A stretch of 64,000 nucleotides of DNA from a bacterium (GTDB lineage: Bacteria; Patescibacteriota; Minisyncoccia; Sungbacterales; SURF-37): positions 49,621-113,620 of the forward strand of contig JAUSHI010000007.1 of NCBI GenBank assembly GCA_030648055.1. The letters run 5' to 3'. This document shows positions 8,451-51,870 of the stretch, in pieces. Each line of letters opens with the position of its first letter. Position 1 is the first letter of the stretch. The notes under the pieces were generated by a model that worked only from the letters and a program-made list of their open reading frames with translations, did not search any database and was not told the origin of the DNA. The position numbers and the translations under genes are program-made.

Positions 8451-8966
8451 ATGCAGACAGCTCTGGCAAAACACAAAGAACAACGCGTCGCCGTATTCAT
8501 TGATGTGCAAAATATGTACCACTCGGCGCGCAATCTGTTTAACGCGCGGGTAAATTTCGGGGAAGTGGTAAAGGAGGCGGTGGCCGGAAGAAAACTCATC
8601 CGGGCGTTTGCTTATGTGGTGCGCACTAAAACTGGGGAAGAAAAAGCTTTTTTTGACGCGCTCGTCAAATCGGGAATAGAAACCAGAGTAAAAGACCTGC
8701 AGGAATTTTTTGGAGGCGCAAAAAAGGCCGATTGGGATGTGGGCATGGCGATGGACGCCGTACGCACCGCCGAAATTGCCGATAACATTGTTATAGTGTC
8801 CGGCGACGGAGATTTTGTGCCCTTAATTGAATACTTGAAAGGAAGAGGGCGCAGGGTTGAGGTAATCGCCTTTGACCGCACCGCTTCGCAAAAACTAAAA
8901 GAGGCGGCGGACGATTTTACCGACCTTGGCGCGAAACCGCAAAAATTCTTACTGCGAAATCAATAA
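8451..8966 (+). CDS. NYN/LabA-like (DUF88) nuclease-domain protein
   Basis: VAVFIDVQNMYHSA near the N-terminus and IVIVSGDGDFVPLIEYLKGRGRRVEVIAF later, matching the LabA/NYN pattern. Confidence 0.75.
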   Translation: MQTALAKHKEQRVAVFIDVQNMYHSARNLFNARVNFGEVVKEAVAGRKLIRAFAYVVRTKTGEEKAFFDALVKSGIETRVKDLQEFFGGAKKADWDVGMAMDAVRTAEIADNIVIVSGDGDFVPLIEYLKGRGRRVEVIAFDRTASQKLKEAADDFTDLGAKPQKFLLRNQ

Positions 8967-9021
8967 TTAAAAAACTAAATAATTAATTTAAGAAATCGTA
9001 ATCCGAAAAGGGAAGTGCACG

Positions 9022-9089
9022 CTAAAATTTCTTTTGTTCTTCAAACAGTCCTCCTTCGCTAAAGCTTCGGAGGATAAAAGAAATTTTAG
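9022..9089 (+). promoter_or_regulatory. Long stem-loop in the pnp 5' leader
   Basis: CTAAAATTTCTTTT (9022-9035) pairs perfectly with AAAAGAAATTTTAG (9076-9089). Inner stem is TCCTCC/GGAGGA. Ends 44 nt upstream of the pnp ATG. Confidence 0.6.
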
Positions 9090-9132
9090 AGAAAGCTCTT
9101 CCGCTTGCGGACACGAATCCAATCATATATTT

Positions 9133-11334
9133 ATGGAAGGAAAAAAATTCAATATGGAAATCGGCGGAAAACTTATTTTCGCTGAACTCACTCCGCTCGC
9201 TTGGCAGGCAAACGGCCATGTTATCGTGCGCCTGGGCGATACGACAGTTTTAGTTACCGCGGTAATGTCCAAAGACCCGAGAGAAAGCGGGGATTTTTTC
9301 CCGTTAACTGTAGAATACGAAGAAAAGTTCTATGCCGCAGGAAAAATTTTCGGAAGCCGCTTTATTAAGCGCGAGTCCCGGCCATCGGAAGAAGCAATTC
9401 TTTCCGCGCGACTGATTGACCGCACCATCCGCCCGCGATTTGACCTCCGCATGAGAAACGAAGTGCAAATTGTCGCAAGCATTCTTTCTTTTGATGAGCA
9501 GAACGATTCCGATATCCCAGCACTCCTCGGCGCTTCTCTGGCGCTCTCGCTTTCAAACATTCCTTGGGACGGTCCAGTGGCTGCAGTGAGAATCGGAAAA
9601 ATAAACGGAGAACTCATAATTAACCCGACGCTTGAAGAACGGCAAACCTCCACGCTTGATTTAGTTGTCTCCGGCACTGAATCAAAAATCAACATGGTTG
9701 AGGCCGGCTCCAACGAAGAACCCGAGGCCGAGATACTGCGGGCCATGGCCTTCGCTCATGAACAAATCAAAAAACTCATCGCGTTTGAGCAAGAAATAAT
9801 TAACTTCGTGCGACCAGAAAAAACTTCCGTTAAGCTTTCCGAAAAAACCGGCCCAATGCATGAGGCGCTGTTAAGTAATTTCTCAAAAGAGCTTGAAAAG
9901 GCGCTTTGGGAAAAAAATAAAATAGAAAGAAACTCCAAACTTTCTTCAATAAAATCAGAATGGATGGAGCATGCCAAAACAAATTTCGCCGATACTTTTA
10001 CTCCGCAGTCGGCAAATTATATGTGGGAAGAAGAAATAGACAGCATAGTACACCGAAGAATTATTGATAAGGGCGAGAGGCCCGACGGAAGAAAACTTGA
10101 TGAATTGCGCGCCCTTTCGGCTGATGTCGGGATATTGCCGCGGGTGCATGGTTGCGGGCTTTTTGTGCGGGGAGAAACGCAGGCCCTTTCTGTGTTAACT
10201 CTTGGCGGTCCGGGGGACAAATTAATCATTGAGGGCATGGAGGTCAGAAAGAAAAAACGCTTCATACACCAGTATAATTTCCCGCCCTTTTCTGTGGGCG
10301 AAGTTAAGCCGATGCGCGGCCCGGGACGCCGCGAAATCGGGCACGGGGCCCTGGCCGAACGGGCTTTAACGCCTCTTATCCCTTCAGAAGAAGATTTTCC
10401 TTACACCATACGGATTGTTTCGGAAATTCTTTCTTCTAACGGTTCATCTTCCATGGCTTCGGTCTGCGGCTCTACTCTCGCGCTTTTTGACGCAGGAGTA
10501 CCAATGAAAAAACCTGCGGCCGGAGCGGCTATGGGCCTTATGATGAAAAACGAAAAAGAATACGCGGTCCTCACCGACATTCAGGGACCAGAAGACCACT
10601 ATGGAGATATGGATTTCAAGGCCGCGGGAACCAGAGACGGCATTACAGCACTCCAGATGGACGTCAAAATTGACGGCGTAACCTTGGAGATGCTTGAAAA
10701 AACTCTTACTCAAGCAAAAGCCGCCAGAATGCAAATTCTGGATGTGTTGGAAAAAACCCTGCCCGCCCCAAGACCGGAACTTTCCCCCTACGCCCCGCGC
10801 ATTATTACTCTTAAAATAAATCCTGAAAAAATCGGCGCGCTCATTGGCCCTGGTGGCAAGGTCATCAACGAGATTATCGCCCAAACCGGCGCGCAAATAG
10901 ACATAGAAGACGACGGCACCGTATTTATTACATCGGATACTAAAGAAGGAATGGACAAAGCGGTAAATATGGTAAAAAATGTCACCAAAGAAATTAAGGC
11001 CGGCGAACTGCTTGAAGGCAGGGTGTCGCGCATGTTTGATTTTGGAGTGATGGTAGAAATCGGACCGCGGCTTGAAGGCATGGTGCATATATCTGAACTG
11101 GCCCCATGGAGAGTTGAACGAGTAACCGATATAGTTAATGCGGGTGACATAATTCCTGTTATAGTAAAAGAAATTGATGATCAGGGCAGAATCAACTTAT
11201 CGCTAAAGCGCGTACCGGGACGCTATTCTGAAGAAGAGATGGCTAAACACGCCTCGGAGGGGGGTGGCTTCGGAAGACCGAGCCACGAAGGAGGCCCGCG
11301 AGGACACAGTAGCGGACCGAGGCGCCATCATTAA
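9133..11334 (+). CDS. pnp: Polyribonucleotide nucleotidyltransferase (PNPase)
   Basis: Start chosen at ATG 9133 (MEGKKFNMEIGGK). Two RNase PH-like halves (FPPFSVGE, GRREIGHG), then KH (GPGGKVINEI) and S1 (GRVSRMFDFGVMVEI) domains, plus a Gly/Arg-rich tail. Confidence 0.9.
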   Translation: MEGKKFNMEIGGKLIFAELTPLAWQANGHVIVRLGDTTVLVTAVMSKDPRESGDFFPLTVEYEEKFYAAGKIFGSRFIKRESRPSEEAILSARLIDRTIRPRFDLRMRNEVQIVASILSFDEQNDSDIPALLGASLALSLSNIPWDGPVAAVRIGKINGELIINPTLEERQTSTLDLVVSGTESKINMVEAGSNEEPEAEILRAMAFAHEQIKKLIAFEQEIINFVRPEKTSVKLSEKTGPMHEALLSNFSKELEKALWEKNKIERNSKLSSIKSEWMEHAKTNFADTFTPQSANYMWEEEIDSIVHRRIIDKGERPDGRKLDELRALSADVGILPRVHGCGLFVRGETQALSVLTLGGPGDKLIIEGMEVRKKKRFIHQYNFPPFSVGEVKPMRGPGRREIGHGALAERALTPLIPSEEDFPYTIRIVSEILSSNGSSSMASVCGSTLALFDAGVPMKKPAAGAAMGLMMKNEKEYAVLTDIQGPEDHYGDMDFKAAGTRDGITALQMDVKIDGVTLEMLEKTLTQAKAARMQILDVLEKTLPAPRPELSPYAPRIITLKINPEKIGALIGPGGKVINEIIAQTGAQIDIEDDGTVFITSDTKEGMDKAVNMVKNVTKEIKAGELLEGRVSRMFDFGVMVEIGPRLEGMVHISELAPWRVERVTDIVNAGDIIPVIVKEIDDQGRINLSLKRVPGRYSEEEMAKHASEGGGFGRPSHEGGPRGHSSGPRRHH

Positions 11335-11370
11335 TAAGATTTTTAAATTGAGATATCCTATGTAATATGG

Positions 11371-11515
11371 CCCCCCGCCAATTTTGCAGGGCGTACCCCG
11401 GCAAAGCGCTTCGCCCATATGGGATGTGCTATTCGCACACGCGCTTCGCACAAGTTATACATGCGCATCTTTCCTCCAATTTTTACAATTTCTGACGGCA
11501 AAATTGGAAGGGGAT
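11371..11515 (+). repeat. Hairpin element family B, copy B2
   Basis: Terminal inverted repeats CCCCCCGCCAATTTTGC and GGCAAAATTGGAAGGGGA. Core GGCAAAGCGCTTCG..GGGATGTGCTATTCGCACACGCGCTTCGC. The inner hairpin GTGC-TATTC-GCAC is a paired 1-bp shortening of B1's GTGCC-TATTC-GGCAC. Confidence 0.8.
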
Positions 11516-11568
11516 GCTCATGATTGTAACTAAATTTTATTCGCTAAAGCTCTAAAATTTAGACAATC

Positions 11569-12486
11569 ATGGCAGATCAAGGACGACAAAATCAACAACC
11601 CTCCGGACAAAGGCCCGAGCCAAGCTCCGCTCGGCCAGAACCAAAAATTCGGACCATGAAATCGGATATTGATAAGTTCATGAAGGATACGAAACCCTCG
11701 CTTATTCAAATGATGACTAAGCAAGCGGAATACCGGTCCCCGGAAATAGAGAAAGAGGAGAAAAAGTTCCCGACAAAAATCATTTTAATAGTCGCGGGTT
11801 CCATGGTTGTCTTGGCGGTTTTGGGTTGGCTTGGCTATATCCTGCTCACACCGCAAACCCCGCCACAACAGGCAAAAACTTCCGCGGGTAAAACCACGAC
11901 GGGCGAAGAAATTCCCGCCTCTCCAATTTTGACTGAAAAAACACAAACCGCGACTTCATTGCGAAACCCGATTCAATTGCAAAAAATAATTTTTGACGCG
12001 GCTCAAAACGCAGAACGCCCCCAGTCCCTCAAGCGCCTGGTAATCAAAATTAAAGAAGCCGACGGCGGCACCGGTTTTCTTACGGCAAAAGATTTTTTTG
12101 ATATTCTTAACATCCCCGCACCCCAGCAAGTTCAAGACACCCTTAGAGACCAGCTATTCTTATACATTTACTATACTTCAACCGGCCTCCCGCGCGCGAT
12201 ATTTATCGCACCCTCACGCAACCCCGAACGTATGCGCGGAGGAATGTTCGCTTGGGAAAGTTCTATGGAGCGCGACTTGGACACTCTTTTTCTCGGTGCC
12301 ACACCAAATCAAATTGTCGCCCCCTTTTTTGACAAGACATTCAGAAACATAGATTACCGCACCCTTGCCTTAGAACCCGGAACCGAGGTGGGATACTTTA
12401 TGTTTTCCGCGAAAAACTTCCTGGTTATAACGACTTCCGATGAGGCGCTTCAGGTCGCCATCAATCGGCTATTTGAATCAAGGTAA
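11569..12486 (+). CDS. Hypothetical membrane-anchored protein
   Basis: 305-aa ORF. Disordered basic N-terminus, a single TM (IILIVAGSMVVLAVLGWLGYILL), then an extracytoplasmic domain. Confidence 0.55.
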   Translation: MADQGRQNQQPSGQRPEPSSARPEPKIRTMKSDIDKFMKDTKPSLIQMMTKQAEYRSPEIEKEEKKFPTKIILIVAGSMVVLAVLGWLGYILLTPQTPPQQAKTSAGKTTTGEEIPASPILTEKTQTATSLRNPIQLQKIIFDAAQNAERPQSLKRLVIKIKEADGGTGFLTAKDFFDILNIPAPQQVQDTLRDQLFLYIYYTSTGLPRAIFIAPSRNPERMRGGMFAWESSMERDLDTLFLGATPNQIVAPFFDKTFRNIDYRTLALEPGTEVGYFMFSAKNFLVITTSDEALQVAINRLFESR

Positions 12487-12527
12487 ATATAGCGCACCGC
12501 GCCTTATTAGTGTTAAAATAAACTGGT

Positions 12528-12908
12528 ATGACACTAGACCAAAAAACAATTGAAGAATTAAAGCAAAAATTGCTGTCGGAAAAAAAGATACTGGAAGGAA
12601 CCCTTTCCTCTATTGCCTCGCCCGACCCGAAAATGAAAGGGGATTGGGATACTAAATTTCCGAGCATGGGCGATAAATCAAGTTTTTCATCGGGAGCGCT
12701 GGAAGAAAGAGCAGACGAAATTGAAGAATATTCCACCGAGCTTGCCGAAGAATTTAGCATGGAATCGCGCCTTAAAGAAGTAAATTCGGCGATGGAAAGA
12801 ATGGAGAAAGGAACATACGGAACGTGCGCAAGGTGTGGAGAAGAAATACCGCTTGAGCGTCTCCAGGCCAATCCTGCCGCGGCAACGGACATTAAACACG
12901 CCGAATAA
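12528..12908 (+). CDS. DksA/TraR-family zinc-finger-like protein
   Basis: C-terminal GTCARCGEEIPLERLQANPAAAT matches the DksA/TraR pattern. The second CxxC is replaced by DIKH. Confidence 0.6.
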   Translation: MTLDQKTIEELKQKLLSEKKILEGTLSSIASPDPKMKGDWDTKFPSMGDKSSFSSGALEERADEIEEYSTELAEEFSMESRLKEVNSAMERMEKGTYGTCARCGEEIPLERLQANPAAATDIKHAE

Positions 12909-12913
12909 TACTC

Positions 12914-13067
12914 GCAATTCCTTTTTCGCACGACGCTTCGGTTTTGGATATGCGAAGCCGAAAAGCTTCGGGGAGCCCTCCCTTACGCTGCGGCTCGGGT
13001 TTCCCTTCTTGCTTTTCTCACCGCATATTTTCCAAAACCTCCGCTATTGTGCGAGAAAAGGAATTGC
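12914..13067 (+). repeat. Long branched hairpin element C just after the dksA-like stop
   Basis: GCAATTCCTTTTTCGCAC (12914-12931) pairs with GTGCGAGAAAAGGAATTGC (13049-13067). Inner pairing GGTTTTGGATATGCG / CGCATATTTTCCAAAACC. Tip hairpin GAAGC-CGAAAA-GCTTC. Confidence 0.7.
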
Positions 13068-13690
13068 TCGCTTTGGGGAGAGTATTAAAGGAAGCGCTTA
13101 AGCGCCACTTTTTATTTTGTAGCCGCGCCTTCGCAATGAAAAATTTTTGCTACTGCTCCGCTAATATATAATATGAAATAAAAAAGCCCTGATTCATTCG
13201 GGGTTTTGTGTTGCGCGCCCTGCGCATTTTTCCGCTTTAGCACTATAAGAAAACAGTGGTTCAAGAAAACGAACAATAAGCCGCTCACCAATCTCACGAG
13301 TATTATTGTTGTGTGAATATTCGAGAGAACACAAGCATGCGACAAGCACAAACCACTTTTACATGGATTAATTTTCCCAAAACATACCGCAAATAAGCGC
13401 GCCCACATCCGGCGCGAAGCGACCCGTAATCGCAATCGCTCCTCTCACCCGTCTCTTAAAGACACCGGTCTATCTCTCTGAAAAAACCAGACAATCGTCC
13501 GGATATGGCCTGGTTGGTATAAATAGGGCTAATGATACTGTCAATTTTGACAACCGCATTGCGCCTTGCTACGAATGGTTTATCACAATTCATAGAACAT
13601 GAAGCTCATAGCATAAAAAACACTGCGTAAAACATCTAACACAGAACAGGCGCGTGCTCCATGTTTTATGTTATATGTGTTATAACACTT

Positions 13691-15211
13691 ATGGTCAAAC
13701 TCTCCTCCGCGCAACTTACCGGACTCGACGCAACAATCATAACAGTAGAAGTGGACCTATCGCCCGGCCTTCACATTTTTTCAATTGTCGGCCTCGCCGA
13801 TAAAGAAATTCAGGAGTCCCGCGAACGGATAGGCGCGGCGGTAAAAAATATCGGCGGCAGAGCTCCGCACAAAAAAGCCCAGCGTATAATAGTCAACCTC
13901 GCCCCGGCCGACATAAAAAAAGAAGGGCCGGCTTTTGATTTGCCCATTGCTCTTGGTTTTTTGCTTGCCTCGGAACAGACAAGATTCAATCCGGAAGGAA
14001 AACTGTTTTTAGGCGAGCTCGGACTAGACGGTTCGGTAAAACCGATACGCGGGGCGCTCGCTTCAACAATTGAGGCAAAAAAACATTCTTTCAAAACTAT
14101 TTATGTTCCAAAAGGCAACGGAAACGAGGCCGCCCTTGTCGGAGGCATTGAGGTCAAAGAAGTGGGAAGCATACTGGAACTTCTTGATGATCTGGAAAAT
14201 AAAAAAGAAATTGCCGCGCACATCCGTGAAGAAAAAGCAGGAGAAGATATTATTTTTTCTAATTTTTCATTAATCAAGGGACAGGAACACGCCAAACGCG
14301 CTCTGGAAATCGCCGCCGCTGGGGGGCATAATCTTCTAATGCAGGGGCCTCCGGGCACGGGCAAAACCATTCTTGCCCGTTCACTTCCTGAAATCCTTCC
14401 AAAACTCTCATACGAAGAAACAATTGAAGTTACAAAAATTTACAGCGCTACCGGATTTTTAAAAGCAAGCGATGAGGCTGTCATTAAACGGCCCTTCCGT
14501 TCGCCTCACCACACCGCCTCCCCCGTTTCAATCGCCGGAGGAGGAAACCCGATGCGCCCGGGAGAAATAACGCTTGCCCATCGCGGAGTTCTTTTTCTTG
14601 ATGAACTGCCGGAATTCCAATCAAACGTGCTTGAGGCTCTTCGCGAACCTCTAGAAGAGCGCGTCATCACCGTATCGCGCGCGCAAGGAACCGTCGCGTT
14701 TCCGGCACATATAATTTTAGTCGGGGCAATGAACCCGTGCCCGTGCGGACACTTGAATAATCCTCCCCATGAATGCGTCTGCACGCCAGGCCAAATTACA
14801 AAATACCAAAGAAAAATATCAGGCCCGTTGCTCGACCGCATTGACTTATTTATTGAAGTGCCGCCGGTAGAAATCAAAAAAATTGATGAAGAACACCAGG
14901 AAACGAACGAGGCGGAAGCGGCCCGGCAAAGAGTGAAAAAGGCGCGGGGAATCCAGCGCGAACGATTTTTAAACGAAAAACTTCTTACCAACTCCGAAAT
15001 GGGCCTTCGCGAAATTAAAAAATACTGCCCGCTTAATGAAGAAACTAAAAAAATCCTGCGCCAGGCCTACGAACAATACGCCATGTCGGTGCGCTCATAT
15101 TACCGAACCATCAAAACCGCGCGCACCATCGCCGATCTCGCCGAATCTCAAAACATAGAAACACCCCATCTCCTTGAAGCCCTTCAGTATCGAGCCAGAG
15201 TAGAAATTTAA
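13691..15211 (+). CDS. comM: Mg-chelatase-like AAA+ ATPase, YifB/ComM family
   Basis: Start chosen at ATG 13691 (MVKLSSAQLTGLDA). Walker A GPPGTGKT, Walker B VLFLDELPEF, ChlI-like core. Confidence 0.85.
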   Translation: MVKLSSAQLTGLDATIITVEVDLSPGLHIFSIVGLADKEIQESRERIGAAVKNIGGRAPHKKAQRIIVNLAPADIKKEGPAFDLPIALGFLLASEQTRFNPEGKLFLGELGLDGSVKPIRGALASTIEAKKHSFKTIYVPKGNGNEAALVGGIEVKEVGSILELLDDLENKKEIAAHIREEKAGEDIIFSNFSLIKGQEHAKRALEIAAAGGHNLLMQGPPGTGKTILARSLPEILPKLSYEETIEVTKIYSATGFLKASDEAVIKRPFRSPHHTASPVSIAGGGNPMRPGEITLAHRGVLFLDELPEFQSNVLEALREPLEERVITVSRAQGTVAFPAHIILVGAMNPCPCGHLNNPPHECVCTPGQITKYQRKISGPLLDRIDLFIEVPPVEIKKIDEEHQETNEAEAARQRVKKARGIQRERFLNEKLLTNSEMGLREIKKYCPLNEETKKILRQAYEQYAMSVRSYYRTIKTARTIADLAESQNIETPHLLEALQYRARVEI

Positions 15212-15295
15212 CAATTACGGTTCTTCACAAATTCCCGTTAAATATGCTATCGCTTGTTAAAACGGCATTTACTAATATCCTAATCCTAATAACTA

Positions 15296-15388
15296 ATGGC
15301 ATTTAGAGCCTACCTCGCCGAATCCCAAAACATAGAAACGCCTCATCTTTTGGAGGCGCTGCAATATCGGGCAAAGGTTGAGATATAA
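15296..15388 (+). pseudogene. Displaced, diverged duplicate of the comM 3' end
   Basis: Encodes MAFRAYLAESQNIETPHLLEALQYRAKVEI*, versus the true C-terminus ..IADLAESQNIETPHLLEALQYRARVEI*. A 26-nt near-identical core occurs at 15137-15162 and 15314-15339. Confidence 0.7.
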
Positions 15389-15907
15389 AAGAACGAACCC
15401 CGACCGTGCTAGCACGAATCCGGGGTTAAGGTGTGGGGATTGTTTACCCCACTGCATGTTTTTACCTTGTCCCGAGGGACACGGTCAGGTAGCCTCCACA
15501 TGGGTTTTGGTAAACGGTTTCCCGTCTGCCTTATTCGGCTTTGCCGAACCATGCTTCAAACCTGCCTCGTAAGCCATGACCTCACGAGGATTTTGTTTTT
15601 GCGGCACATCATGTTGCGCCGAAGATGTTTTTATTATGTGCGGGTGAAAAAAACGCGCTCCTCTTGCTGAGCCGTAACCGACTATCAGTTTTCCTAATCC
15701 TTCCGCCAATAGATTGCTCTAAGGGCGATCTTTTTCTCCTCTCTACTCCCGATTCTCACCGGGTTGTAGTATGAGGAGCCCGCTCCATGGGAGTGGAGCA
15801 TGGCCGGTTGCAACGATTGCAACCGAGGTTCTTAGTTTTCAAGATAACCGTCTCCCGTGGCGCCCATCTCCGAATGCCCGCACTCATCCGGTAGGTCTCC
15901 AAGGTAC
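15385..15907 (-). ncRNA. Candidate large structured RNA of unknown class
   Basis: Consensus promoter sits immediately upstream on the minus strand. No convincing ORF. Many local hairpins (GGTTGCAA-CG-ATTGCAACC, GCTCCA..TGGAGC, GTGGGG..CCCCAC). 3' terminator-like AACCCCG..CGGGGTT followed by CGTTCTTTT. Confidence 0.4.
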
Positions 15908-15913
15908 ATAGGC

Positions 15914-15941
15914 ATTATAACATATACAAAAATTCTGTCAA
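15914..15941 (-). promoter_or_regulatory. Near-consensus sigma70 promoter with extended -10
   Basis: Minus strand reads TTGACA (15941-15936), a 16-nt spacer ending in TGT, then TATAAT (15919-15914). Confidence 0.65.
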
Positions 15942-16136
15942 GCAAAAATCCAAAAATACCAGTGTTTGCTAGTTTTTTTATTCTCTTTTCTAGACCCTAT
16001 CTTCTAAATTCTAATCTAAAAACGGATTCTTCGCCCTAAACCGCTTAACGGTCGGGCGAAATCCCTAAACAGGGCGCGCCTGTCAACTATAGCCTTAGAA
16101 AAGATTTTTTAGCTCCTCTACCTTAAAATATATAAA

Positions 16137-17291
16137 TTATCTGCTTGCCCAGGAATTATCAGCTCCTGGATTTCTTGCGCCCAGCACACCAAAATGAACA
16201 TGACAGCCGGACGAATTGCCGGTAGAACCAACCGTTCCAATAATAAACCCTTGAGACACATATTGGCTGACGGAAACAAAAACCTGCGATAAGTGCGCGT
16301 AAACCGTCTGTGTGTTTGAATGAGCGATCACGACGTATTTTCCATAACCACCGTTCCTGCCGGACCCTTTCGCAATAATAACCGTACCTTCAACCGCGGC
16401 ATAAATTGGCTCCGCGCACGAAGTTGCTAAATCAACTGCATTATCCTTTCCATGAAGCCCCTGCGTCCTCACCCCGCCCTGAATAGGCCTGATGTAGTAC
16501 CCAAAATATGTTGGAAGTTTGGAATTCTGTGTTGGCGCGCTCGGTTGGGTTGACGGCGTCCACGGCAATTCTCCGTCAGAAATAAAAAGAAGGGTTCCGG
16601 GAACTAACCGCTCATCAATAGAAAGGCTATTTAAACTTAAAATATCTTCAATATTTCCTTTGTATTTTTGGGCTATGGAATTAATCGTATCTCCTTTTTC
16701 TACCTTGACCTCTACGCCATCTATGGAACGAACAACAAGCTTGTCTCCAACCTGAATTTTACGCACATCGGAAATATCATTGGCCCAGAGCAGGGTGTTT
16801 ACCGTAATGCCATGCGCTTTAGCAATAGACGAGGGGGTGTCGCCGAGTTCTACTGTGTGGATAAAAATCTGCCCATCGTTTATGAATGAATCATCCCGCA
16901 TAATGTTATTGGGATTCTGTGGGGCGACAATAGCACTACTCTGCACAACTATTGAGTTTGTGTTTTCGGCACTTTTTAAATTTACATCGGGATTAGGGGT
17001 TGAATCCAAAACAGGCATGGCGACTGTCGCCGCCCGGGTTTCTTTTATAAAAAGAGGAGAACGCTCTTCTGTTATCTGCTTAGAATTGCAAAAGATCCCC
17101 AAAACGTCACAAAAAAATCCGGCATGTGCATGGACCGGAAAAGCAAAAAGTATTAAAAAGCCAAGAAAAACCGAGGTAATTGCGGTTTTAGCCTCTAAAC
17201 CAGTCGCTCTGCGATTGGTCAAGCGATCAGCCGATAAAATCGGCTGATTTAGCTTTAAAAAAGCCGAATGCTTCTTTTGAAGAAGAAGCAT
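16137..17291 (-). CDS. LysM-domain M23 family peptidoglycan endopeptidase
   Basis: Two LysM-like repeats (HTVELGDTPSSIAKAHGITVNTLLWAN and VKVEKGDTINSIAQKYKGNIEDIL). M23 motifs HGKDNAVD and GCHVHFGV. Confidence 0.8.
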   Translation of the reverse strand: MLLLQKKHSAFLKLNQPILSADRLTNRRATGLEAKTAITSVFLGFLILFAFPVHAHAGFFCDVLGIFCNSKQITEERSPLFIKETRAATVAMPVLDSTPNPDVNLKSAENTNSIVVQSSAIVAPQNPNNIMRDDSFINDGQIFIHTVELGDTPSSIAKAHGITVNTLLWANDISDVRKIQVGDKLVVRSIDGVEVKVEKGDTINSIAQKYKGNIEDILSLNSLSIDERLVPGTLLFISDGELPWTPSTQPSAPTQNSKLPTYFGYYIRPIQGGVRTQGLHGKDNAVDLATSCAEPIYAAVEGTVIIAKGSGRNGGYGKYVVIAHSNTQTVYAHLSQVFVSVSQYVSQGFIIGTVGSTGNSSGCHVHFGVLGARNPGADNSWASR

Positions 17292-17677
17292 TTGTGCAGT
17301 TTTTACTTGTTCTTTTGATGTTCCAGGCCCGCGCCAGAAAATGAACCGCCGCGTAACTGGATTTGATATCTTACTAATAGGCGTTTAATAACGCGGCTTT
17401 TACACTAAAATCATTAAAACACCAGATTTTAAGCCACATTTTAAGATTAACTCTCTTTACTTATAGCCCATCCGTCTATGGATAGAGTAAGCCAGAAATG
17501 TGGTTTAGGCAAGCTCAAATATCCACAAGAAGGAGTACCGCCCGAAACAGGACTTGCCGCAAAATCCTCTTTGTCTTTGCGTTTTTTCCTGCTACGATAG
17601 CGACATATTAATAATCGGCGGCAAAAATATCAACATAAAATTTTAAAATCGGCGCACCGATCATCCTGCCTAATCTC

Positions 17678-19648
17678 ATGGACTCCATCCTGGAAGGCTT
17701 AAACAACAAACAGCTTGAAGCGGTAACGGCCGTAGAAGGACCGGTATTGATAATTGCCGGGGCCGGCTCCGGAAAAACAAAGGCCCTCACGCACCGGGTG
17801 GCCCATTTAATATCACGCGGGATAAACCCATCATCAATTCTCGCGGTCACCTTCACCAATAAAGCGGCGGATGAGATGAAGACAAGAATCGCCGACCTCT
17901 TAAAAAAACACACTGCCAAAGAATCTCCAAAACTATTCCAAAAAGGAACGGCATCGCCTTTCGTCGGGACTTTTCACTCTCTTTGCGTATCAATCCTCCG
18001 TGAAGAATGCTCCAAAATAAAATTTCAAAGAAATTTCTCAATTTTTGATGAGGATGATTCGCTTTCACTCTTAAAAGAAATCATAAAAGAATTTAACATC
18101 TCTACCAAACAATACCCGCCGGGCATGGTCAGACACACGATCTCTAACCTAAAAAATGAACTAATAAGCGACGAAGAATATTCGGTCACGGCCGGAGAAG
18201 AAATTTTCTCAAAAAATGTTTCAAAAGTTTATGCCGAGTATCAGACGCGCCTGAAAAAAGCCAACGCTTTTGACTTTGATGATTTAATAACAAGCGTGGT
18301 GCGTATCTTCAAAGAAAATCCGGATGTCCTAAAAAAATACCAAGAACGCTTCTCCTACATCCACGTGGACGAATTTCAAGATACCAATATGCCCCAATAT
18401 CTTCTGGTCAGCCTTCTTACCAAATCGCGAGGAAACATCTTTGTTATCGGAGACGACGCGCAATCAATTTATTCATGGCGCGGAGCCGACATGCGAAACA
18501 TTTATAACTTTGAAAAAGAATGGCCTAACACCAAAGTCATACTTTTGGAACAAAATTACCGCTCAACCCAGACGATTTTGGGCGCGGCGAATGATTTAAT
18601 CACCAACAACCCCAGCCAAAAAAAGAAAAATCTATGGACGGAAAACACGGCCGGAGAACCGATAACCCTGATTTCAACCGAAAGCGAGCGGCATGAAGCA
18701 GGGCTAATCGCTGAAGAAATAATTCACTCAATTGAAAATGAAAAGCGCAAACCAAACGACTTTGCCGTACTGTATCGCACCAACGCTCAATCGCGATCAT
18801 TGGAAGAAGCACTACTTGATTCCTCCCTACCCTATGTCATCATCGGCGGCATTAAATTTTTCCAAAGAAGAGAAGTCAAAGACATCGTCGCTTATCTAAG
18901 ATTTCTGCAAAATCCTTCGGATAGCATCAGTTTAAAAAGAATAATAAACCTTCCTCCGCGCGGCATCGGGAGGGTTGCTTTCTTAAATTACATCGGGGGA
19001 GTAAGCGGAAAAAACGGAAGGAAAGAAAAAATAATTTTAGAAAAATTTGAAAGCCTCGTTGAAAAATTGCGCGAAGAACTGGAAAAAAATAATCTCTCAC
19101 AATTCATAAAAACATTAATAAAAAAAATAAATTACCGCGAGTATCTTGATGACGGATCTAATGAGGCCGAGATGCGCTGGGAAAATGTTCAAGAACTTGT
19201 AAGTTTAGCCAAACGCTTTGACAATGTCCCAACAAAAGAGGGGCTCGTGGAACTTCTAAGCGATATCGCGCTTGTGTCTTACGACGACGCGGACAAAACA
19301 GGCCCGAAAGAAAAAATATCACTGATGACCCTGCACGCGGCAAAAGGCCTTGAATTTCCGGTTGTTTTTATCGCCGGACTTGAAGAGGGTATTTTTCCCC
19401 ATTCCAAATCACTTTTAGAGCCCTCCTCACTTGAAGAAGAACGGCGCCTTTGCTATGTGGGAATCACCAGAGCCAAAGAAAAACTTTATCTTTTATGGGC
19501 AGGAAGAAGAACAATCTTCGGCGAAATACAGGCTAATATTCCTTCACGCTTCATAAAAGAAATACCGGAAAAATATCTGGAGGTTTCTGAAACAAGAAAC
19601 ACGGAACAAGGCGGCGGAGAATACGAAGACGAATCTCTTATTTTTTAA
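17678..19648 (+). CDS. pcrA: ATP-dependent DNA helicase, PcrA/UvrD family
   Basis: Walker A AGAGSGKT. Helicase motifs TFTNKAADEM, VDEFQDTN, QNYRST and VGITRAK. Confidence 0.9.
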   Translation: MDSILEGLNNKQLEAVTAVEGPVLIIAGAGSGKTKALTHRVAHLISRGINPSSILAVTFTNKAADEMKTRIADLLKKHTAKESPKLFQKGTASPFVGTFHSLCVSILREECSKIKFQRNFSIFDEDDSLSLLKEIIKEFNISTKQYPPGMVRHTISNLKNELISDEEYSVTAGEEIFSKNVSKVYAEYQTRLKKANAFDFDDLITSVVRIFKENPDVLKKYQERFSYIHVDEFQDTNMPQYLLVSLLTKSRGNIFVIGDDAQSIYSWRGADMRNIYNFEKEWPNTKVILLEQNYRSTQTILGAANDLITNNPSQKKKNLWTENTAGEPITLISTESERHEAGLIAEEIIHSIENEKRKPNDFAVLYRTNAQSRSLEEALLDSSLPYVIIGGIKFFQRREVKDIVAYLRFLQNPSDSISLKRIINLPPRGIGRVAFLNYIGGVSGKNGRKEKIILEKFESLVEKLREELEKNNLSQFIKTLIKKINYREYLDDGSNEAEMRWENVQELVSLAKRFDNVPTKEGLVELLSDIALVSYDDADKTGPKEKISLMTLHAAKGLEFPVVFIAGLEEGIFPHSKSLLEPSSLEEERRLCYVGITRAKEKLYLLWAGRRTIFGEIQANIPSRFIKEIPEKYLEVSETRNTEQGGGEYEDESLIF

Positions 19649-19650
19649 TT

Positions 19651-19760
19651 CCGTTAGAAGCCGCGGTCGCGGTACGAAAAACATCAAAATATGACTATAA
19701 TTGAGGAAAATTATAAGATCAATAATCAGCGGGTACTAACCGCGGCCTGCTTCTAACGGG
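19651..19760 (+). repeat. Hairpin element family A, copy A1
   Basis: Left arm CCGTTAGAAGCCGCGGTCGCGGTAC, right arm GTACTAACCGCGGCCTGCTTCTAACGGG. It fills the whole pcrA-rsmA spacer and ends at the rsmA ATG. Contains a 21-codon ORF at 19691-19756. Confidence 0.8.
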
Positions 19761-20546
19761 ATGAAGCCAAACAAACTTCTCGGACAACATTTTTTAAAAA
19801 ACAAAAAGGTGATTGAAATAATGATAAGGGCCGCAAAAAACGAGCCTGCTGTTGAGTATGTGCTTGAAATCGGACCGGGCCACGGAGTCCTCACGCGAGC
19901 CCTCGCTGAAAAGTTTAAGCATGTTATCGCCATAGAAAAAGATGCATGGCTTGCCGGAGAGTTGGCAAAAAAATTAAACACTGAAAAAATAACAAATTGC
20001 AAAATTATCGCTGGCGATATATTAAAAATAAATTTCCAAAAACTTCTTGGCAAGGCTCCATATGCGGTAATCGCAAATATCCCTTATTACCTTACCGGCC
20101 GCCTTATTCGCCTGCTCTTAGAAACAAAACATAGGCCCTCCTACATAATTTTAATGGTGCAAAAAGAAGTCGCCGAACGAATTACCGCTGGTCCGCCGGA
20201 AATGAATATGCTCGCCCTGTCGGTACAGGCTTTCGGAAAGCCGCGGATTATGGAACACGTTTCAAAAAAAGAATTTTCTCCGCCGCCGCAGGTTGATTCG
20301 GCCATAATAAAAATTTCGGGAATTTCTGAAAAATTTTTTGTTAAAAATAAAATTTCCGAAAAAGAGTTTTTCGCCATAATACGCGCCACCTTTTCTCAAA
20401 AAAGAAAGCGCCTCGCCAATACGCTTGCGAAATTCTACGGAGACAAAAAAATCGCCGAAGAAAAAATAAAAAAAACGGGCCTCTCTAAAAACGCCCGCCC
20501 GCAAGAGCTTACGCTCAAAAAATGGCTTAAACTCTCTGATAAGTAA
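19761..20546 (+). CDS. rsmA: 16S rRNA (adenine1518/1519-N6)-dimethyltransferase
   Basis: LGQHFL, SAM motif EIGPGHGVLT and ANIPYY. Confidence 0.9.
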   Translation: MKPNKLLGQHFLKNKKVIEIMIRAAKNEPAVEYVLEIGPGHGVLTRALAEKFKHVIAIEKDAWLAGELAKKLNTEKITNCKIIAGDILKINFQKLLGKAPYAVIANIPYYLTGRLIRLLLETKHRPSYIILMVQKEVAERITAGPPEMNMLALSVQAFGKPRIMEHVSKKEFSPPPQVDSAIIKISGISEKFFVKNKISEKEFFAIIRATFSQKRKRLANTLAKFYGDKKIAEEKIKKTGLSKNARPQELTLKKWLKLSDK

Positions 20547-20553
20547 GGCGAAA

Positions 20554-21762
20554 TTACCCACAACCGCATACTTCCGTCATGGGATCCCAAATCACACCCT
20601 GATATCCAGCATCATAACAAGAATTAATACACCCCAACGTATCTAATCCTGAGCAATTAGTTACAACGTAACAGCAGGTTTTCCCGGCAAGATTCACTCC
20701 GGGTGTTTTTGGATTTCCTCCTTCAACGTAACAGACCGGCATGACACCACAGTAAAAATAACAATACGCATTGGCATTAGGAATAGTAAAAATTTCTTTC
20801 AGCATTTTTATGTAATCTCTCAAATTCCACGAAAGTATAACCCCCCGCGGGGTGTCGTAAGAAAGAAGCCCAGCCGAAGAGTTAAAAAAGGCGCTCTTCC
20901 CGCTGTTTAATATGGCATTAATGTCATCATTATATCCTTGCGAGCGCATCAACTCCTGAAATTCCTTTAATGCTTCTTCGCGCGAAACCTTTTGTGCTGA
21001 AGGCGGAACCAAAATACGCCCTTCGTTTATTGCCTTTGCCACAGCCGCCTCTCTCAACTTAAACTCATACGGACGATCATAAAAATTCTCCGCATTCTTA
21101 AATGCTTCATACCGTTCTTTCGTAATATACCCCTTGTCAAAAAGATATTTCCTCACCACAAGATTAAACGCCCTCATTTCTTGCTCAGACTTAAATTCGT
21201 ACTTACTCTCCTGTTGCATCACCCCCTCGCTTATAAGAAAATCCTGAACCTGCCTAAGGCCCGCTATGTAATAATCTGGATAAAGGGTGTTAAAAACCTC
21301 CTCCTTGGTGAGAGTTTTGGTTAAGCTCGCAATGACTCTTTCAATATCATTGCCCACCAAAGCGCTATTTAACTCTTTCGCTTCAAAAAGCCCGGCGGGA
21401 TTTCCTTGACTTTCCTTAAGAAAATCTAAAACGTTTTGGGAAGTAAGTCGCGCTACGGCTGACGAAATTAACGGCTTCAAATCTTGAGTAATTACGCCGT
21501 AAAAATCCGTTGTTATGCCAAAAAGCGGCCGTTTTTGTGTTTCAAAAACACCAGTTAAGCCTATCTTCCCTGGGTCCTGAACACCTTCCGATGTGCTCCC
21601 TACTTTTTCTGGAACATTCAGAGCTTTTCCGCCCCCAGACACCGGGAGGCCGTCGCCGTTTAGTGTCGCAACTGGCCCGGAAGAACGAAAAAACAAAATA
21701 CCAAGAGCGACGCCGCCCACAATCAACACCACCGTAGCCAAAACAACAATACGCTTATCCAT
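20554..21762 (-). CDS. Membrane-anchored hypothetical protein with a cysteine-rich C-terminal module
   Basis: N-terminal TM IVVLATVVLIVGGVALGILFF. The last ~75 aa contain 11 Cys (..CYFYCGVMPVCY..KTCCYVVTNCSGLDTLGCINSCY..VCGCG). Confidence 0.55.
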   Translation of the reverse strand: MDKRIVVLATVVLIVGGVALGILFFRSSGPVATLNGDGLPVSGGGKALNVPEKVGSTSEGVQDPGKIGLTGVFETQKRPLFGITTDFYGVITQDLKPLISSAVARLTSQNVLDFLKESQGNPAGLFEAKELNSALVGNDIERVIASLTKTLTKEEVFNTLYPDYYIAGLRQVQDFLISEGVMQQESKYEFKSEQEMRAFNLVVRKYLFDKGYITKERYEAFKNAENFYDRPYEFKLREAAVAKAINEGRILVPPSAQKVSREEALKEFQELMRSQGYNDDINAILNSGKSAFFNSSAGLLSYDTPRGVILSWNLRDYIKMLKEIFTIPNANAYCYFYCGVMPVCYVEGGNPKTPGVNLAGKTCCYVVTNCSGLDTLGCINSCYDAGYQGVIWDPMTEVCGCG

Positions 21763-21804
21763 GACACAATAATTATACCGTGAGCCGCTCCAAAAGCATA
21801 TTGG

Positions 21805-21834
21805 TTATCCACAGAAAAGCGTTTTTTATACACA
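21805..21834 (+). promoter_or_regulatory. DnaA-box-like pair in a divergent promoter region
   Basis: Perfect TTATCCACA at 21805-21813 and one-mismatch TTATACACA at 21826-21834. Confidence 0.4.
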
Positions 21835-21854
21835 ATTGTACTATAATTAAACCA

Positions 21855-22865
21855 ATGAGAAATAATAGGTTTTCTTGGAAAACTCTAATCCTTGGTAAGA
21901 GGTTGCTTTTGCTTCTCGTCCTGCTTGTCGCAATGTCAGCCGTGGTTATTCTGGTAGTACCTTTTGGACCGCGCGGAAAAAAGAATATTGCCTTCACGCC
22001 CCCTAAAACAAAAGAAGAAGCATTAGCCAATCTCAATAGAGATTCTGACAATGACGGACTAAAAGATTGGGAAGAAAAAATTTACGCGACCGACCCCGCC
22101 AACGCCGATACTGACGGCGACAGCACTCCTGACGGCCAAGAACTTAAAGACGGCAGAAACCCTTTAAAACCCGGGCCAGACGACAAACTTGAAATACCTC
22201 TGCCCCAGCCTGAAAACAACAATAAAACCGAACTGCTCGCAAGCAGTATTGCCAGCAAATCGCTTACAAAAATTGTAATTCAGGCCGCGAATGGAGAATC
22301 AGTGAACAACGCGCTTGATGAATTCAAAGACCCAAAAGAAATAGACAATCTGATTGCATCTCTGGGTAAAGAACAGCCGTTAGACAAAGTTATCCAGCCC
22401 CAATTAAAAGAACTCATCACAACTGCCGATAATTCCCCGGAGGCGGTAAAAAAATATTTCAACACCATCGCCAAAATTCAGCTTGTTAACTTTTTAAATA
22501 TGGAAAGCGACATAAGCATTTTATACCTTGCCCAGTCTTCCGGAAACGTGAAGGCTTTCCGGCGGCTTGACGCAAATATTGCCACCATTGAAAAAGTCAT
22601 CGCGGAAATAAAACAAACACCGGTGCCGACCAAATGGGTCTCTTTCGCGAAAAATCTCGTCTGGTATCTTTCAAAAACTCTCGCCGCGGTAAAAATACTC
22701 CGCGACACCGAAAATGATCCGGTCTCGTCTCTTCTTATCCTTCAGGGCCGCATACAACTTATTGACGACTTCGCGAACCTATATCAGGACACAAAATTAC
22801 AACTCACCGGAATAGATTTTTCGGAAAACGAGCCGGCTTATGGCCTATTTCTTAAAATAAAATGA
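21855..22865 (+). CDS. Membrane-anchored protein with thrombospondin type-3-like Ca-binding repeats
   Basis: Start chosen at ATG 21855 (MRNNRFSWK.., with a TM). DSDNDGLKDWEE and DTDGDSTPDGQE repeats. Confidence 0.55.
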   Translation: MRNNRFSWKTLILGKRLLLLLVLLVAMSAVVILVVPFGPRGKKNIAFTPPKTKEEALANLNRDSDNDGLKDWEEKIYATDPANADTDGDSTPDGQELKDGRNPLKPGPDDKLEIPLPQPENNNKTELLASSIASKSLTKIVIQAANGESVNNALDEFKDPKEIDNLIASLGKEQPLDKVIQPQLKELITTADNSPEAVKKYFNTIAKIQLVNFLNMESDISILYLAQSSGNVKAFRRLDANIATIEKVIAEIKQTPVPTKWVSFAKNLVWYLSKTLAAVKILRDTENDPVSSLLILQGRIQLIDDFANLYQDTKLQLTGIDFSENEPAYGLFLKIK

Positions 22866-28103: not shown

Positions 28104-28250
28104 TTAACCCAGCCCTTTATGCAGTAAAAATTACTTCAATGTCAATATGAAAAGCATATCAACATCAAAATTAAAATTAAATTCAGCCGGCTTAAAGGGT
28201 TGGGTGCTGAATTTTATAATTATTCGCTAACACTCATAAATAAAATTCGC

Positions 28251-29132
28251 ATGCCCACAACACACATAAACGAAGAAGAAATTTTAAAGCGTTATGAGTC
28301 TTTGCCCCAAGACCTTAAAGACGCAATGATGGGCATTTCCACGGCCGACGCAATTAGCGAAATAGGCCGTAAAACAAATCTAAATATAGAAAAGATGGGG
28401 GCGCTGGCTGAAGAAGTGGGGCTTATTATCCTGGGATTTATTCCATCAGCAAATTTTATTTCCGATATCAAAACCGTGCTTGATATAGATGCGGAAAAGG
28501 CGGCGGAAATCGCAAATGAAGTAAACCAGCACATATTTTTACCGATACGCGAATCATTGAAACGCCTGCATGGCGCCTCCTGGAGTGAGGGAATCACCAA
28601 GCCCCCGGTAAAATTTGAAGGACAAAAAGTTGCCGAATTTAAACCCGCGCCCCCCGTTCCGGAAATAAAACCTTCCGGTCCGGTAAGCGCACCCGAAGCA
28701 AAACCGCAACCACCAGCGCTACCCGCCCCGAAAGAACCGATGATAATAAGACCAATGGGTCTGCCCGCGCCGCTACCCAAAGAAGAAAGATTCGGCGCAA
28801 AAGAAATTACCATGCCGCCCGCGCTACTCCCAACCCCAACATTGCCACCCGCGCCAGCGCGAACTGTTCCTACGATTCCTCCCATTGCTCAAAAAATTAT
28901 AACTCCTGAAATAAGACCTCAAGAAATTAAACTTCCGCCATCAGCTTTACCAATTTCAGAAAAAGAACAGGAAATGCCGTTCTCTCCATTTTCTTACGCC
29001 ACGCCCAAACCCGCTTTCCCAGCACCTACGATTCCATCGGCCCCAAAACCGATTATTCCGCAGCAAAAAATATTTGTCCCCGCGCCCCAACACCAACCAA
29101 GTTCTGACCCCTATAAAGAGCCGCTTGAATAA
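28251..29132 (+). CDS. Hypothetical protein with a helical N-domain and a long proline-rich C-terminal half
   Basis: Start chosen at ATG 28251 (MPTTHINEEE). The C-terminal ~170 aa are rich in P/A/K. Confidence 0.5.
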   Translation: MPTTHINEEEILKRYESLPQDLKDAMMGISTADAISEIGRKTNLNIEKMGALAEEVGLIILGFIPSANFISDIKTVLDIDAEKAAEIANEVNQHIFLPIRESLKRLHGASWSEGITKPPVKFEGQKVAEFKPAPPVPEIKPSGPVSAPEAKPQPPALPAPKEPMIIRPMGLPAPLPKEERFGAKEITMPPALLPTPTLPPAPARTVPTIPPIAQKIITPEIRPQEIKLPPSALPISEKEQEMPFSPFSYATPKPAFPAPTIPSAPKPIIPQQKIFVPAPQHQPSSDPYKEPLE

Positions 29133-29235
29133 ATCCCCACACCTTCCCGCGGGGTATTGAACCCTGCGGGCAGGACTTGAAACCGCCATTCATCCCCGCG
29201 GCAAGACCGCAGGGTATTCTGGAAGGTGTGGGGAT
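29133..29235 (+). repeat. Three-way-junction-like hairpin element G just after a stop codon
   Basis: Perfect 15-bp closing stem ATCCCCACACCTTCC/GGAAGGTGTGGGGAT encloses two local hairpins, CCCGCGGGG..CCCTGCGGG and CCCCGCGG..CCGCAGGG. Confidence 0.7.
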
Positions 29236-29296
29236 AAAGGGCTTGCTCTAAATTCTGAAATTCGCAGGCGAACAAAATTTATTTAGCAAACCTTTA

Positions 29297-29342
29297 CCCA
29301 GCACTTATTTTCATGCGTCCGATCGTAAAAATAAGTGCTGGG
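29297..29342. repeat. Hairpin H
   Basis: Perfect 15-bp stem CCCAGCACTTATTTT/AAAATAAGTGCTGGG with a 16-nt loop. Confidence 0.7.
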
Positions 29343-32403: not shown

Positions 32404-32497
32404 AAATTAATCCTATTAGAGATCCAAACGTTATACACTGCAATTAATATAAAATACACTATAAAAATCCGGATTGTTTATTATTCTTCACTAATAA

Positions 32498-33037
32498 ATG
32501 GAAATCTTTGATTTCCTATCTCTAACGGGATTAAATTTTACCCCAATGAACGGCATACAGGCACCAACAAATCAAAAATCTCCGGCGAACGATACCCCGT
32601 GGCAAAACGAAAAACTTGCGCGCGCGCCGAAGCAAGCGGAAGCAAAAACACCATCGCCTCAAACCAAAATTTCCGTTGCAATGGGCGGACTTCTTATCGC
32701 AACCGCCTTATTTTTTGACGGCGGACAGTTTGTTCTTGAAGCCTTAACCGGACTTACCGCCGTTCTTCTACCGCTTGGAATTGCTCTTAGTTGGGCAATT
32801 GACGCGATTGCTTGGCTAACTTTTTTCTTATGGTTTCACTCCCTCGGATTAGGTACAATAAAGAAAGGCGGACCCGGAGAAACCACCCTAAATCAGGCGC
32901 CGTTTGTTATCATCGCGTTTGCCCTGGGCATTGAAATAATACCTTTCGTAAACATGCTCCCGGCGTGGACCGCGGCTATCGTAATCGTAATAGTAAAAGA
33001 GCGGGTATTGGCGCTCGCACAACAAAAAAACAAATGA
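32498..33037 (+). CDS. Integral membrane protein (T4SS-locus associated)
   Basis: 179 aa with about 4 hydrophobic helices after a polar N-terminus. Its stop overlaps the next start (ATGA). Confidence 0.5.
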   Translation: MEIFDFLSLTGLNFTPMNGIQAPTNQKSPANDTPWQNEKLARAPKQAEAKTPSPQTKISVAMGGLLIATALFFDGGQFVLEALTGLTAVLLPLGIALSWAIDAIAWLTFFLWFHSLGLGTIKKGGPGETTLNQAPFVIIAFALGIEIIPFVNMLPAWTAAIVIVIVKERVLALAQQKNK

Positions 33038-34005: not shown

Positions 34006-34018
34006 CAAACTTATGAAT

Positions 34019-34137
34019 CCCGTTAGAAACCGCGGTCGCAGTACGTAAAATAAATATCATCAAAATTATGAAGGAAAAAATTATAAACCATCAATATAAT
34101 AACCAGCAGGCGCTGACCGCGACCTGTTTCTAACGGG
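34019..34137 (+). repeat. Hairpin element family A, copy A3
   Basis: Left arm CCCGTTAGAAACCGCGGTCGCAGTAC, right arm ..GCTGACCGCGACCTGTTTCTAACGGG. Ends at the ATG of the pilin-like gene. Contains a 21-codon ORF at 34068-34133. Confidence 0.8.
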
Positions 34138-34545
34138 ATGAAATTCTTTCTTTTTTCCGTTGCCTTTATCGCCGTGTTAGTTCTTGCCCCTGCCGCAAGC
34201 CATGTATCTTTGGCTGAACCTAACCCCACGAGCATAGTTGTACCCACATCAATAACATCGGGAACCACCGGCGCAAAACCCACCACAGCAACAGGCTACC
34301 TTGATTATCTTTATACATGGATGCTGGGATTTGTGGGTATTGCCGCGCTTTTTGCTATAGTTTATGGCGGAGTGCTTTATATTTTCTCAGGGGCTATTGA
34401 GTCAACCGCTGAAGCGCGAAGGTGGATTACCAACGCCATTATAGGCCTCCTTATTGCCGGCGGCTCTTACGTTATTCTTCGCACCATAAACCCAGATCTG
34501 GTTAAAAAATTTGATGTGCAAACCATTATCCAAAAAAATAGATAA
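34138..34545 (+). CDS. VirB2/TrbC-like pilin candidate
   Basis: Signal peptide MKFFLFSVAFIAVLVLAPAASHVSLA followed by two hydrophobic helices (MLGFVGIAALFAIVYGGVLYIF and IIGLLIAGGSYVIL). Located in the T4SS locus. Confidence 0.5.
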   Translation: MKFFLFSVAFIAVLVLAPAASHVSLAEPNPTSIVVPTSITSGTTGAKPTTATGYLDYLYTWMLGFVGIAALFAIVYGGVLYIFSGAIESTAEARRWITNAIIGLLIAGGSYVILRTINPDLVKKFDVQTIIQKNR

Positions 34546-37075: not shown

Positions 37076-37213
37076 AATGTTTAGAGATAGAAAGTCAAAA
37101 GTCTGCGTCTATTAACGTTAAAATAATAAATAGTCTTAGTTTTTATAATATAATTTATACTGCTTGCGACACATAACGCTTGGATCTCTAGCAGAACTCA
37201 TTGAATTTTAAAT

Positions 37214-51723: not shown

Positions 51724-51768
51724 GCGAATTTTGTCTATGAGTGTAGCGAATAGTTATAAAATTCAGCA

Positions 51769-51869
51769 CCCCGCCCTCTATGCTGTTTGACCACAGACAA
51801 TAAATAAATTTATTAAGAAAAGGGTGTATAAAAAGAGGCTAATGAATATTTGCGGCTTAGAGGGCGGGG
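51769..51869 (+). repeat. Hairpin element family J, copy J2
   Basis: CCCCGCCCTCTATGCTGTTT (51769-51788) ... CGGCTTAGAGGGCGGGG (to 51869). Confidence 0.8.
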
Positions 51870-51870
51870 T

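Follow-up and report, generated by a model that had tools for sequence, protein, structure and literature searches.

Recombination can leave older gene ends behind, as in polymorphic toxin/immunity loci such as the T6SS (type VI secretion system) effector arrays of Vibrio cholerae, where successive events at a conserved segment strand them downstream. Here we describe a second, diverged copy of the end of comM (yifB), located 96 nt downstream of the intact gene in a 64-kb stretch of contig JAUSHI010000007.1 (hereafter the window), which comes from a metagenome-assembled genome of an uncultured groundwater-type bacterium. Several described systems produce related structures. Homology-facilitated illegitimate recombination joins foreign DNA during uptake through one homologous and one illegitimate end (PMC3240628). 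Around the e14 element of Escherichia coli K-12, the intact icd gene has a tail that differs mainly synonymously from icdC, a C-terminal pseudogene fragment downstream (PMC13626634). The comM gene itself is a documented insertion site for AbaR-type islands and Tn7-like transposons in Acinetobacter baumannii (PMC11441513, PMC11014353). On balance, the structure at the comM locus would be what recombination with a diverged relative's DNA left behind, a scar having one homologous and one illegitimate end, and we found no evidence here that it is the footprint of a mobile element.

The comM gene and the second copy of its tail

The comM gene is complete, with the Pfam domains ChlI, Mg_chelatase and Mg_chelatase_C, the last of which ends at residue 501 of 506. 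Most homologues belong to Candidatus Sungbacteria, a lineage of the Patescibacteria or Candidate Phyla Radiation, and the name given to them is YifB family Mg chelatase-like AAA ATPase. One related contig, CAZDKA010000004.1, was labelled 'uncultured Candidatus Saccharibacteria bacterium' by its depositor, while comM homologues mostly carry the Sungbacteria label.

The present comM tail (copy 1) and the downstream fragment (copy 2) are identical at 62 of 81 nt (77%), with a start-to-start distance of 177 nt, and the positions of both are given with those of other features in Table 1. Self-BLAST recovered the repeat at E = 9e-12 with a 301-nt query against the window and at 2e-9 with the whole window against itself. 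A preliminary description of this DNA, made from the sequence alone, had counted 10 identical codons, 14 synonymous differences and 1 R/K change between 15137-15211 and 15314-15388, and these counts are exact. The repeat extends 6 nt further to the left than described there, taking in GCC, then GAT in copy 1 versus TAC in copy 2. This left-edge codon is GAY in every orthologue, so the D to Y change belongs to copy 2.

Copy 2 lies outside any longer paralogous gene, an origin that the preliminary description had considered: the frame opened by the ATG at 15296 (15296-15388) gives just 30 amino acids, and this is also the sole open reading frame (ORF) that touches the spacer between the copies. 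BLAST of the 96-102 nt upstream of copy 2 found no match in the fetched loci or the window, and a short-word search with the spacer (15212-15313) against the same sequences returned chance matches of 9-14 nt only. A Logan contig (L013, 17.7 kb, run SRR13727527) is 100% identical to window positions 12296-18388, a span of 6,093 nt that includes the locus, showing that the duplication is not one assembler's quirk.

We read or aligned the comM 3' ends of related loci L001, L002/L014, L003, L004/L005, L006, L007 and L015. Amino acid identity of their ComM proteins to that of the window is 86% for L001, 85% for L002 and 74% for L004/L005, and L014 is 99.7% identical to L002 in DNA. Scanning genome contigs with comM peptide patterns gave no closer relative among the matches listed. 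The preliminary description had proposed looking for empty and occupied sites in relatives, and the first kind was found throughout: all fetched comM ends have a single tail, the 'empty' state, with no occupied site, and the number of these relatives carrying a second comM tail is 0.

The relatives differ in what follows comM. In L001, L002 and L014, comM is followed by a conserved non-coding element X, then by Y, an RNA gene on the minus strand whose promoter matches the consensus, and then by a convergent gene encoding a LysM-M23 peptidase, and L001 retains Y as a terminator stub only. The Y terminator of L004/L005 lies 5 nt after comM and is followed by the M23 gene, the comM and M23 stop codons of L015 are 7 nt apart with nothing between them, and L003, L006 and L007 have another gene downstream of comM. 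The comM-M23 interval therefore holds nothing in L015, Y in L004, X and Y in L002/L014, and X with a Y stub in L001. Judging from these gene orders, this intergenic region is structurally fluid in the clade.

These comparisons also bear on which side of the duplication is old. Window positions 15308-15406, comprising copy 2 and the next 18 nt, align with L004 1654-1754 at 80% identity over 101 nt, and the L004 segment consists of its comM tail and the terminator of its minus-strand RNA gene. This alignment indicates that the junction between copy 2 and Y is ancestral, and hence that copy 2 is the old comM end left in place. The novel part would lie on one side or the other of the junction at 15307/15308, being either copy 1 with its 96-nt spacer or copy 2 together with Y, and the outer flanks on both sides are syntenic with relatives.

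Divergence of the tails and mosaic ancestry of comM

The differences between the two tails are strongly biased towards preserving the protein. Across 24 sense codons there are 17 differences, with 15 at third positions and a single R/K change. When 17 substitutions were placed at random, the mean was 10.9 amino acid changes, and one or fewer was never obtained in 200,000 trials (P<5e-6). Beyond a 26-nt core near their left ends, the tails agree at 33 of 49 nt, and each copy agrees with L001, L002 and L004 at 35-38 of 49. Protein-preserving divergence combined with an orthologue-like distance suggests that the tails diverged within working comM genes of different lineages, and thus that one of them was imported comparatively recently. 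The random-placement test supports what the preliminary description had drawn from the protein-preserving pattern, namely that a foreign comM allele contributed one tail. Alternatively to import, selection may still be acting on copy 2. Of the single mutations possible in copy 2, 76% would be nonsynonymous, which limits the neutral substitutions since its loss of coding constraint to ~3 (95% level) and suggests a recent event. We also attempted to recognize the native tail by its similarity to L001, L002 and L004, and dropped this approach when the counts for the two copies proved indistinguishable.

The comM gene is also a recombination mosaic. When the comM codons of the window, L001, L002 and L004 were aligned, the 5' 900 nt of the window gene proved to be as far from L002 as from L004, and the 3' 600 nt to group with L001/L002. 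Site patterns among the window, L002 and L004 are divided into about one third each up to ~14600 (100, 95 and 89 sites), whereas sites at which the window equals L002 dominate over 14591-15190 (109 vs 35 vs 38). Third-position identity between the window and L002 is 0.36-0.58 over 13691-14890 and 0.74-0.78 over 14891-15190, a rise from ~0.45 to ~0.76. The same measure between L001 and L002 ranges from 0.60 to 0.86 across comM, with no comparable step. Maximum chi-square analysis placed the breakpoint near 14606 against L002 (0/2000 permutations) and near 14656 against L001 (p=0.0005).

Recombination with a relative's DNA could have produced this arrangement as follows. The ancestor would have had a comM gene ending directly at the terminator of the convergent minus-strand Y, as L004 does today. 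A different lineage within this candidate-phylum clade would have supplied DNA that recombined at the locus, with one end resolved by homologous recombination and the other, at 15307/15308, joined illegitimately with no homology or only microhomology. In one version (A), the 3' part of the donor comM with tail 1 and 96 nt of downstream sequence would have replaced the resident gene up to codon -26. In the other (B), tail 2 of the donor comM together with Y and its promoter would have been joined 96 nt behind the resident comM. Either version would give the same structure, an intact comM, a spacer, and an 81-nt orphan tail abutting Y. The body of Y is unrelated to its counterparts in relatives while its promoter and terminator are shared, which makes version B attractive, though not proven.

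Several points weigh against this explanation. The L002-like tract fades at ~15160-15190, tail 1 agrees with L002 at 38 of 49 nt, and the spacer does not resemble L002, so the duplication may have arisen independently of the mosaic tract. The window and L002 have 17 differences in the ~192 nt before the right edge of the core and 12 in the 51 nt after it; a crossover in the core would give the same drop in similarity, which may favour the integration model of the preliminary description. The illegitimate junction and any microhomology there are deduced from the structure, and competence of the organism is assumed. The nearest comM product among 5.8 billion proteins is 86% identical, and the best M23 peptidase homologue found by protein database search is only 62% identical.

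The 26-nt core and alternative explanations

Even when up to 3 mismatches are permitted, the core, CTCGCCGAATCYCAAAACATAGAAAC, is found at exactly two places in the 64 kb (0 expected), and there is no third copy in the window at this threshold. The preliminary description had taken the identical core followed by a diverged tail as the mark of site-specific integration and called the locus an att-site-like scar. Between copies 1 and 2, the core is identical at 25/26 positions and the tail at 33/49 (Fisher p=0.004), but orthologues show an equal contrast. For copy 1 and L004, the core gives 25/26 and the tail 36/49 (p=0.03); the values are 24/26 and 37/49 for copy 2 and L004, and likewise 24/26 and 37/49 for L002 and L004. 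Since the same profile is found between orthologues without shared integration, the core is better viewed as a slowly evolving stretch in this clade, and integration at an att site loses its main argument.

A possible reason for this slow evolution is found on the opposite strand, where the core forms the U-tract of a terminator-like antisense hairpin that faces Y with its strong promoter. The hairpin, GCGCCUC...GAGGCGC followed by CUUCUAUGUUUUG, folds at -12 to -15 kcal/mol in the comM ends of L001, L002 and L004, and is found in copy 2 as well (-12.1 kcal/mol); the value for copy 1 is -9.4 kcal/mol. It is missing in the relatives that have no Y, and in L003, L006, L007 and L015 that segment gives 0 to -6.4 kcal/mol. 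Core and hairpin would thus be conserved by acting as a second Y terminator, although the species compared are not independent samples. A degenerate DNA pattern combining core and hairpin had no match in JGI metagenomes among the matches listed, and in genome contigs the same pattern found the L004 contig only, again among the matches listed.

An att scar would mean that an integrative element with a tyrosine or serine recombinase entered the 26-nt core, as e14 does at icd, brought tail 1 with it, and was later deleted down to ~150 nt between attL and attR. The architecture fits, with an intact gene whose tail differs synonymously from an old tail persisting as a downstream pseudogene, and the similarity of the intact gene to L002 does fall near the right edge of the core. 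The spacer contains short CTAAT/CCTAAT repeats and has no homologue in the fetched loci or elsewhere in the window. Set against this, beyond the orthologue profiles, are the lack of any ORF within the 96-nt spacer or the ~150-nt 'element', and the lack of a recombinase or mobile-element gene among ten neighbouring genes scanned (8451-22862), in keeping with the missing integrase noted in the preliminary description. The neighbours instead encode PNPase, a DksA-like protein, the LysM-M23 peptidase, UvrD and KsgA. The core shows no dyad symmetry on direct reading, there is no third core in the window, and a viral contig collection had no match to the core, to a close comM tail or to either Y type. 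The 64-kb window has no tRNA or tmRNA gene, excluding att sites of the tRNA type, and no transposase or transposon interruption of comM was found, the gene being intact and the repeat 81 nt long. This model further requires a deletion that removed integrase and cargo and spared both att sites within 150 nt, and we consider it unlikely.

Continued selection on copy 2 after an old tandem duplication, either for the 30-aa peptide or for an antisense terminator/insulator between Y and comM, appears distinctly improbable. The peptide frame starts with ATG and copy 2 is in frame with comM (177 nt being 59 codons), but the ATG at 15296 has no purine-rich ribosome-binding motif on direct reading, a feature that is not obvious for comM either. 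A role in termination would agree with the antisense hairpin being stronger in copy 2 than in copy 1 and with synonymous sites in the hairpin region of copy 2 that match L001 and L004 at 7/8 codons. However, constraint at the RNA level would not keep the amino acid sequence at the eight terminal codons, whose third positions are saturated, and Y has its own strong terminator. Only 81 nt are repeated. Copy 1 is followed by the spacer and copy 2 by the Y terminator, two unrelated sequences that leave no tandem unit; nor does any of the relatives have this arrangement. Simple duplication by slippage, after which differences should be neutral, also disagrees with the nearly all-synonymous divergence. 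That two strain variants of the comM end were joined in series by assembly or binning is extremely improbable. The source is a metagenome-assembled genome, and the tails are as distant from each other as tails from different lineages, each matching L001, L002 and L004 to the same degree. Yet the copies share no exact match longer than 14 nt, which is shorter than the k-mers commonly used in assembly, and the 15307/15308 junction has no shared k-mer. The Logan assembly gives the same 6,093 nt, though possibly from the same reads, and the synteny of both outer flanks also argues against an artefact.

Candidate RNA genes beside the proposed scar and comparison with known systems

Table 1. Positions of the comM locus features, RNA elements and dispersed repeats in the window, with coordinates in related loci where indicated.
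Feature	Position	Strand	Basis or remark
comM/yifB, intact	13691..15211	+	ORF list; 506 aa from ATG 13691, longest ORF from 13661
comM 3' part grouping with L001/L002 lineage	14606..15190	+	right end uncertain, ~15160-15190
Copy 1, present comM tail, 26 codons + stop	15131..15211	+	repeat search, codon table
26-nt core, copy 1	15137..15162	+	25/26 against copy 2; 25/26 against L004
AT-rich spacer, 96 nt	15212..15307	.	no homologue in fetched loci or window; rearrangement junction at right edge, 15307/15308
Copy 2, comM' pseudogene fragment	15308..15388	+	repeat search, codon table, L004 alignment
26-nt core, copy 2	15314..15339	+	minus strand is the U-rich tract after the hairpin
Antisense terminator-like hairpin in copy 2	15337..15360	-	AGCGCCUC-loop-GAGGCGUU, then UCUAUGUUUU; terminator scan, fold
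Candidate structured RNA Y, ~520 nt	15389..15908	-	minimum free energy z-score -6.7; not part of scar
Primary terminator hairpin of Y	15396..15427	-	fold; 7 nt from copy 2 stop
Non-coding element X, ~165 nt	12911-13073	+	upstream of comM in window
X elsewhere	L001 1722-1960; L002 2328-2491; L014 3993-4156(-); L009 854-1016(-); L011 272-434; L012 1428-1505		
Dispersed repeat pair	19647-19765 and 34016-34142		
Dispersed repeat pair	28190-28253 and 51721-51783(-)		
Dispersed repeat pair	29234-29305 and 51861-51933(-)		
Dispersed repeat pair	32417-32525 and 37081-37190(-)		

The preliminary description had placed a candidate non-coding RNA locus directly to the right of copy 2, and Y does adjoin copy 2 there, on the minus strand. 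Its promoter (15941-15914) is a perfect TTGACA-16-TG-TATAAT, matching 12/12 consensus positions plus the TG, and the 3' arm of its terminator, CGGTCGGGGT, is invariant in the window, L002, L004 and L005. In relatives, Y was located at L002 2555-2925(-) and L004 1735-2110(-), and is ~330 nt long in L002, L004, L005 and L014 (z=-5.1). The bodies of these genes cannot be aligned with that of the window, while promoter and terminator are common to all. Rfam contains no family that reaches its gathering score in the 64 kb, nor any at E<=1 for 12000-19000, and the Y region of L004 gave sub-threshold chance matches only. The Y site looks like a variable slot for RNA genes. A further possibility, which we regard as very improbable, is that the comM tail with its antisense terminator serves as the left arm or attachment site for swaps of RNA-gene cassettes between candidate-phylum bacteria, in which case the orphan comM tail would have arrived as an arm of the incoming cassette. 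If true, this would point to recombinase-free or unrecognised exchange of non-coding RNA genes at a fixed chromosomal slot.

Element X lies upstream of comM in the window and is 89-95% identical between genomes, compared to ~70-77% in DNA for protein genes there. It folds as one long rod-like hairpin (z=-6.9), with compensatory changes in 14/56 predicted pairs among 6 sequences, and the L001 copy has a 78-nt insertion at the apex. Where the upstream gene is visible, X starts 2-47 nt after a plus-strand stop codon, that of a dksA-like gene in the window, comM in L001/L002, an HU gene in L011 and a weakly MurG-like gene in L009. It had no match in Rfam, and is a candidate for an unannotated housekeeping RNA, possibly 6S-like. 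As X is upstream of comM here but downstream in L001/L002, its relocation was considered as a cause of the comM duplication and rejected, because the gene preceding X varies from genome to genome and copy 2 adjoins Y rather than X.

Between X and the comM promoter, ~590 nt (13074-13660) are non-coding. Two terminator-like features occur in this region, a hairpin at ~13180-13205 and a minus-strand site at 13502-13487, together with a possible promoter on the minus strand, TTGACA-17-TATACC, at ~13555-13527. Its similarity to relatives is confined to short stretches, window 13128-13161 matching L003 and window 13538-13578, the comM promoter region, matching L006, and it may hold another RNA gene, 'Z'. 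Elsewhere in the window, four dispersed repeat pairs of 64-129 nt and 73-88% identity seem to lie mostly between ORFs according to the ORF list, and may be either small repeat elements or shared elements of a regulatory or RNA kind.

Taken alone, the scar is one more partial gene duplicate from recombination, of a kind already known. As a marker, it records that diverged Sungbacteria-like lineages have exchanged chromosomal DNA at a locus of which comM is a part, and it fixes the ancestral junction of comM with a variable slot of strongly promoted structured RNA genes (X, Y). It also carries a caution, since an identical core plus a synonymous tail is insufficient to define an att site when orthologues show the same profile. 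The unannotated RNAs X and Y are a more promising subject than the scar.

Among the described systems, homology-facilitated illegitimate recombination shares with the comM locus the placement of foreign DNA next to or over a resident gene, with a partial duplicate at a non-homologous junction. A homologous-exchange tract (breakpoint 14606-14656) is present here as well, possibly from a separate event, and the mechanism at comM is deduced from the structure. As with icd and icdC, comM is intact through Mg_chelatase_C and has an 81-nt fragment of the old tail downstream. However, ~15 kb of prophage with a recombination system lies between the icd copies and its excision has been observed, whereas the comM copies are separated by 96 nt without a gene, a recombinase or signs of excision, and the comM 'core', unlike in the icd/e14 type, is no better kept between copies than between orthologues. 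AbaR-type and Tn7-like islands are large transposons that interrupt and inactivate comM, and thus represent a different phenomenon from this locus, where comM is intact and nothing is transposon-like. The T6SS arrays share the stranded gene end with comM, but they reflect repeated, selected swaps of variable toxin tips, while here a housekeeping tail would have been swapped for one differing by one conservative R/K change, leaving a single orphan.

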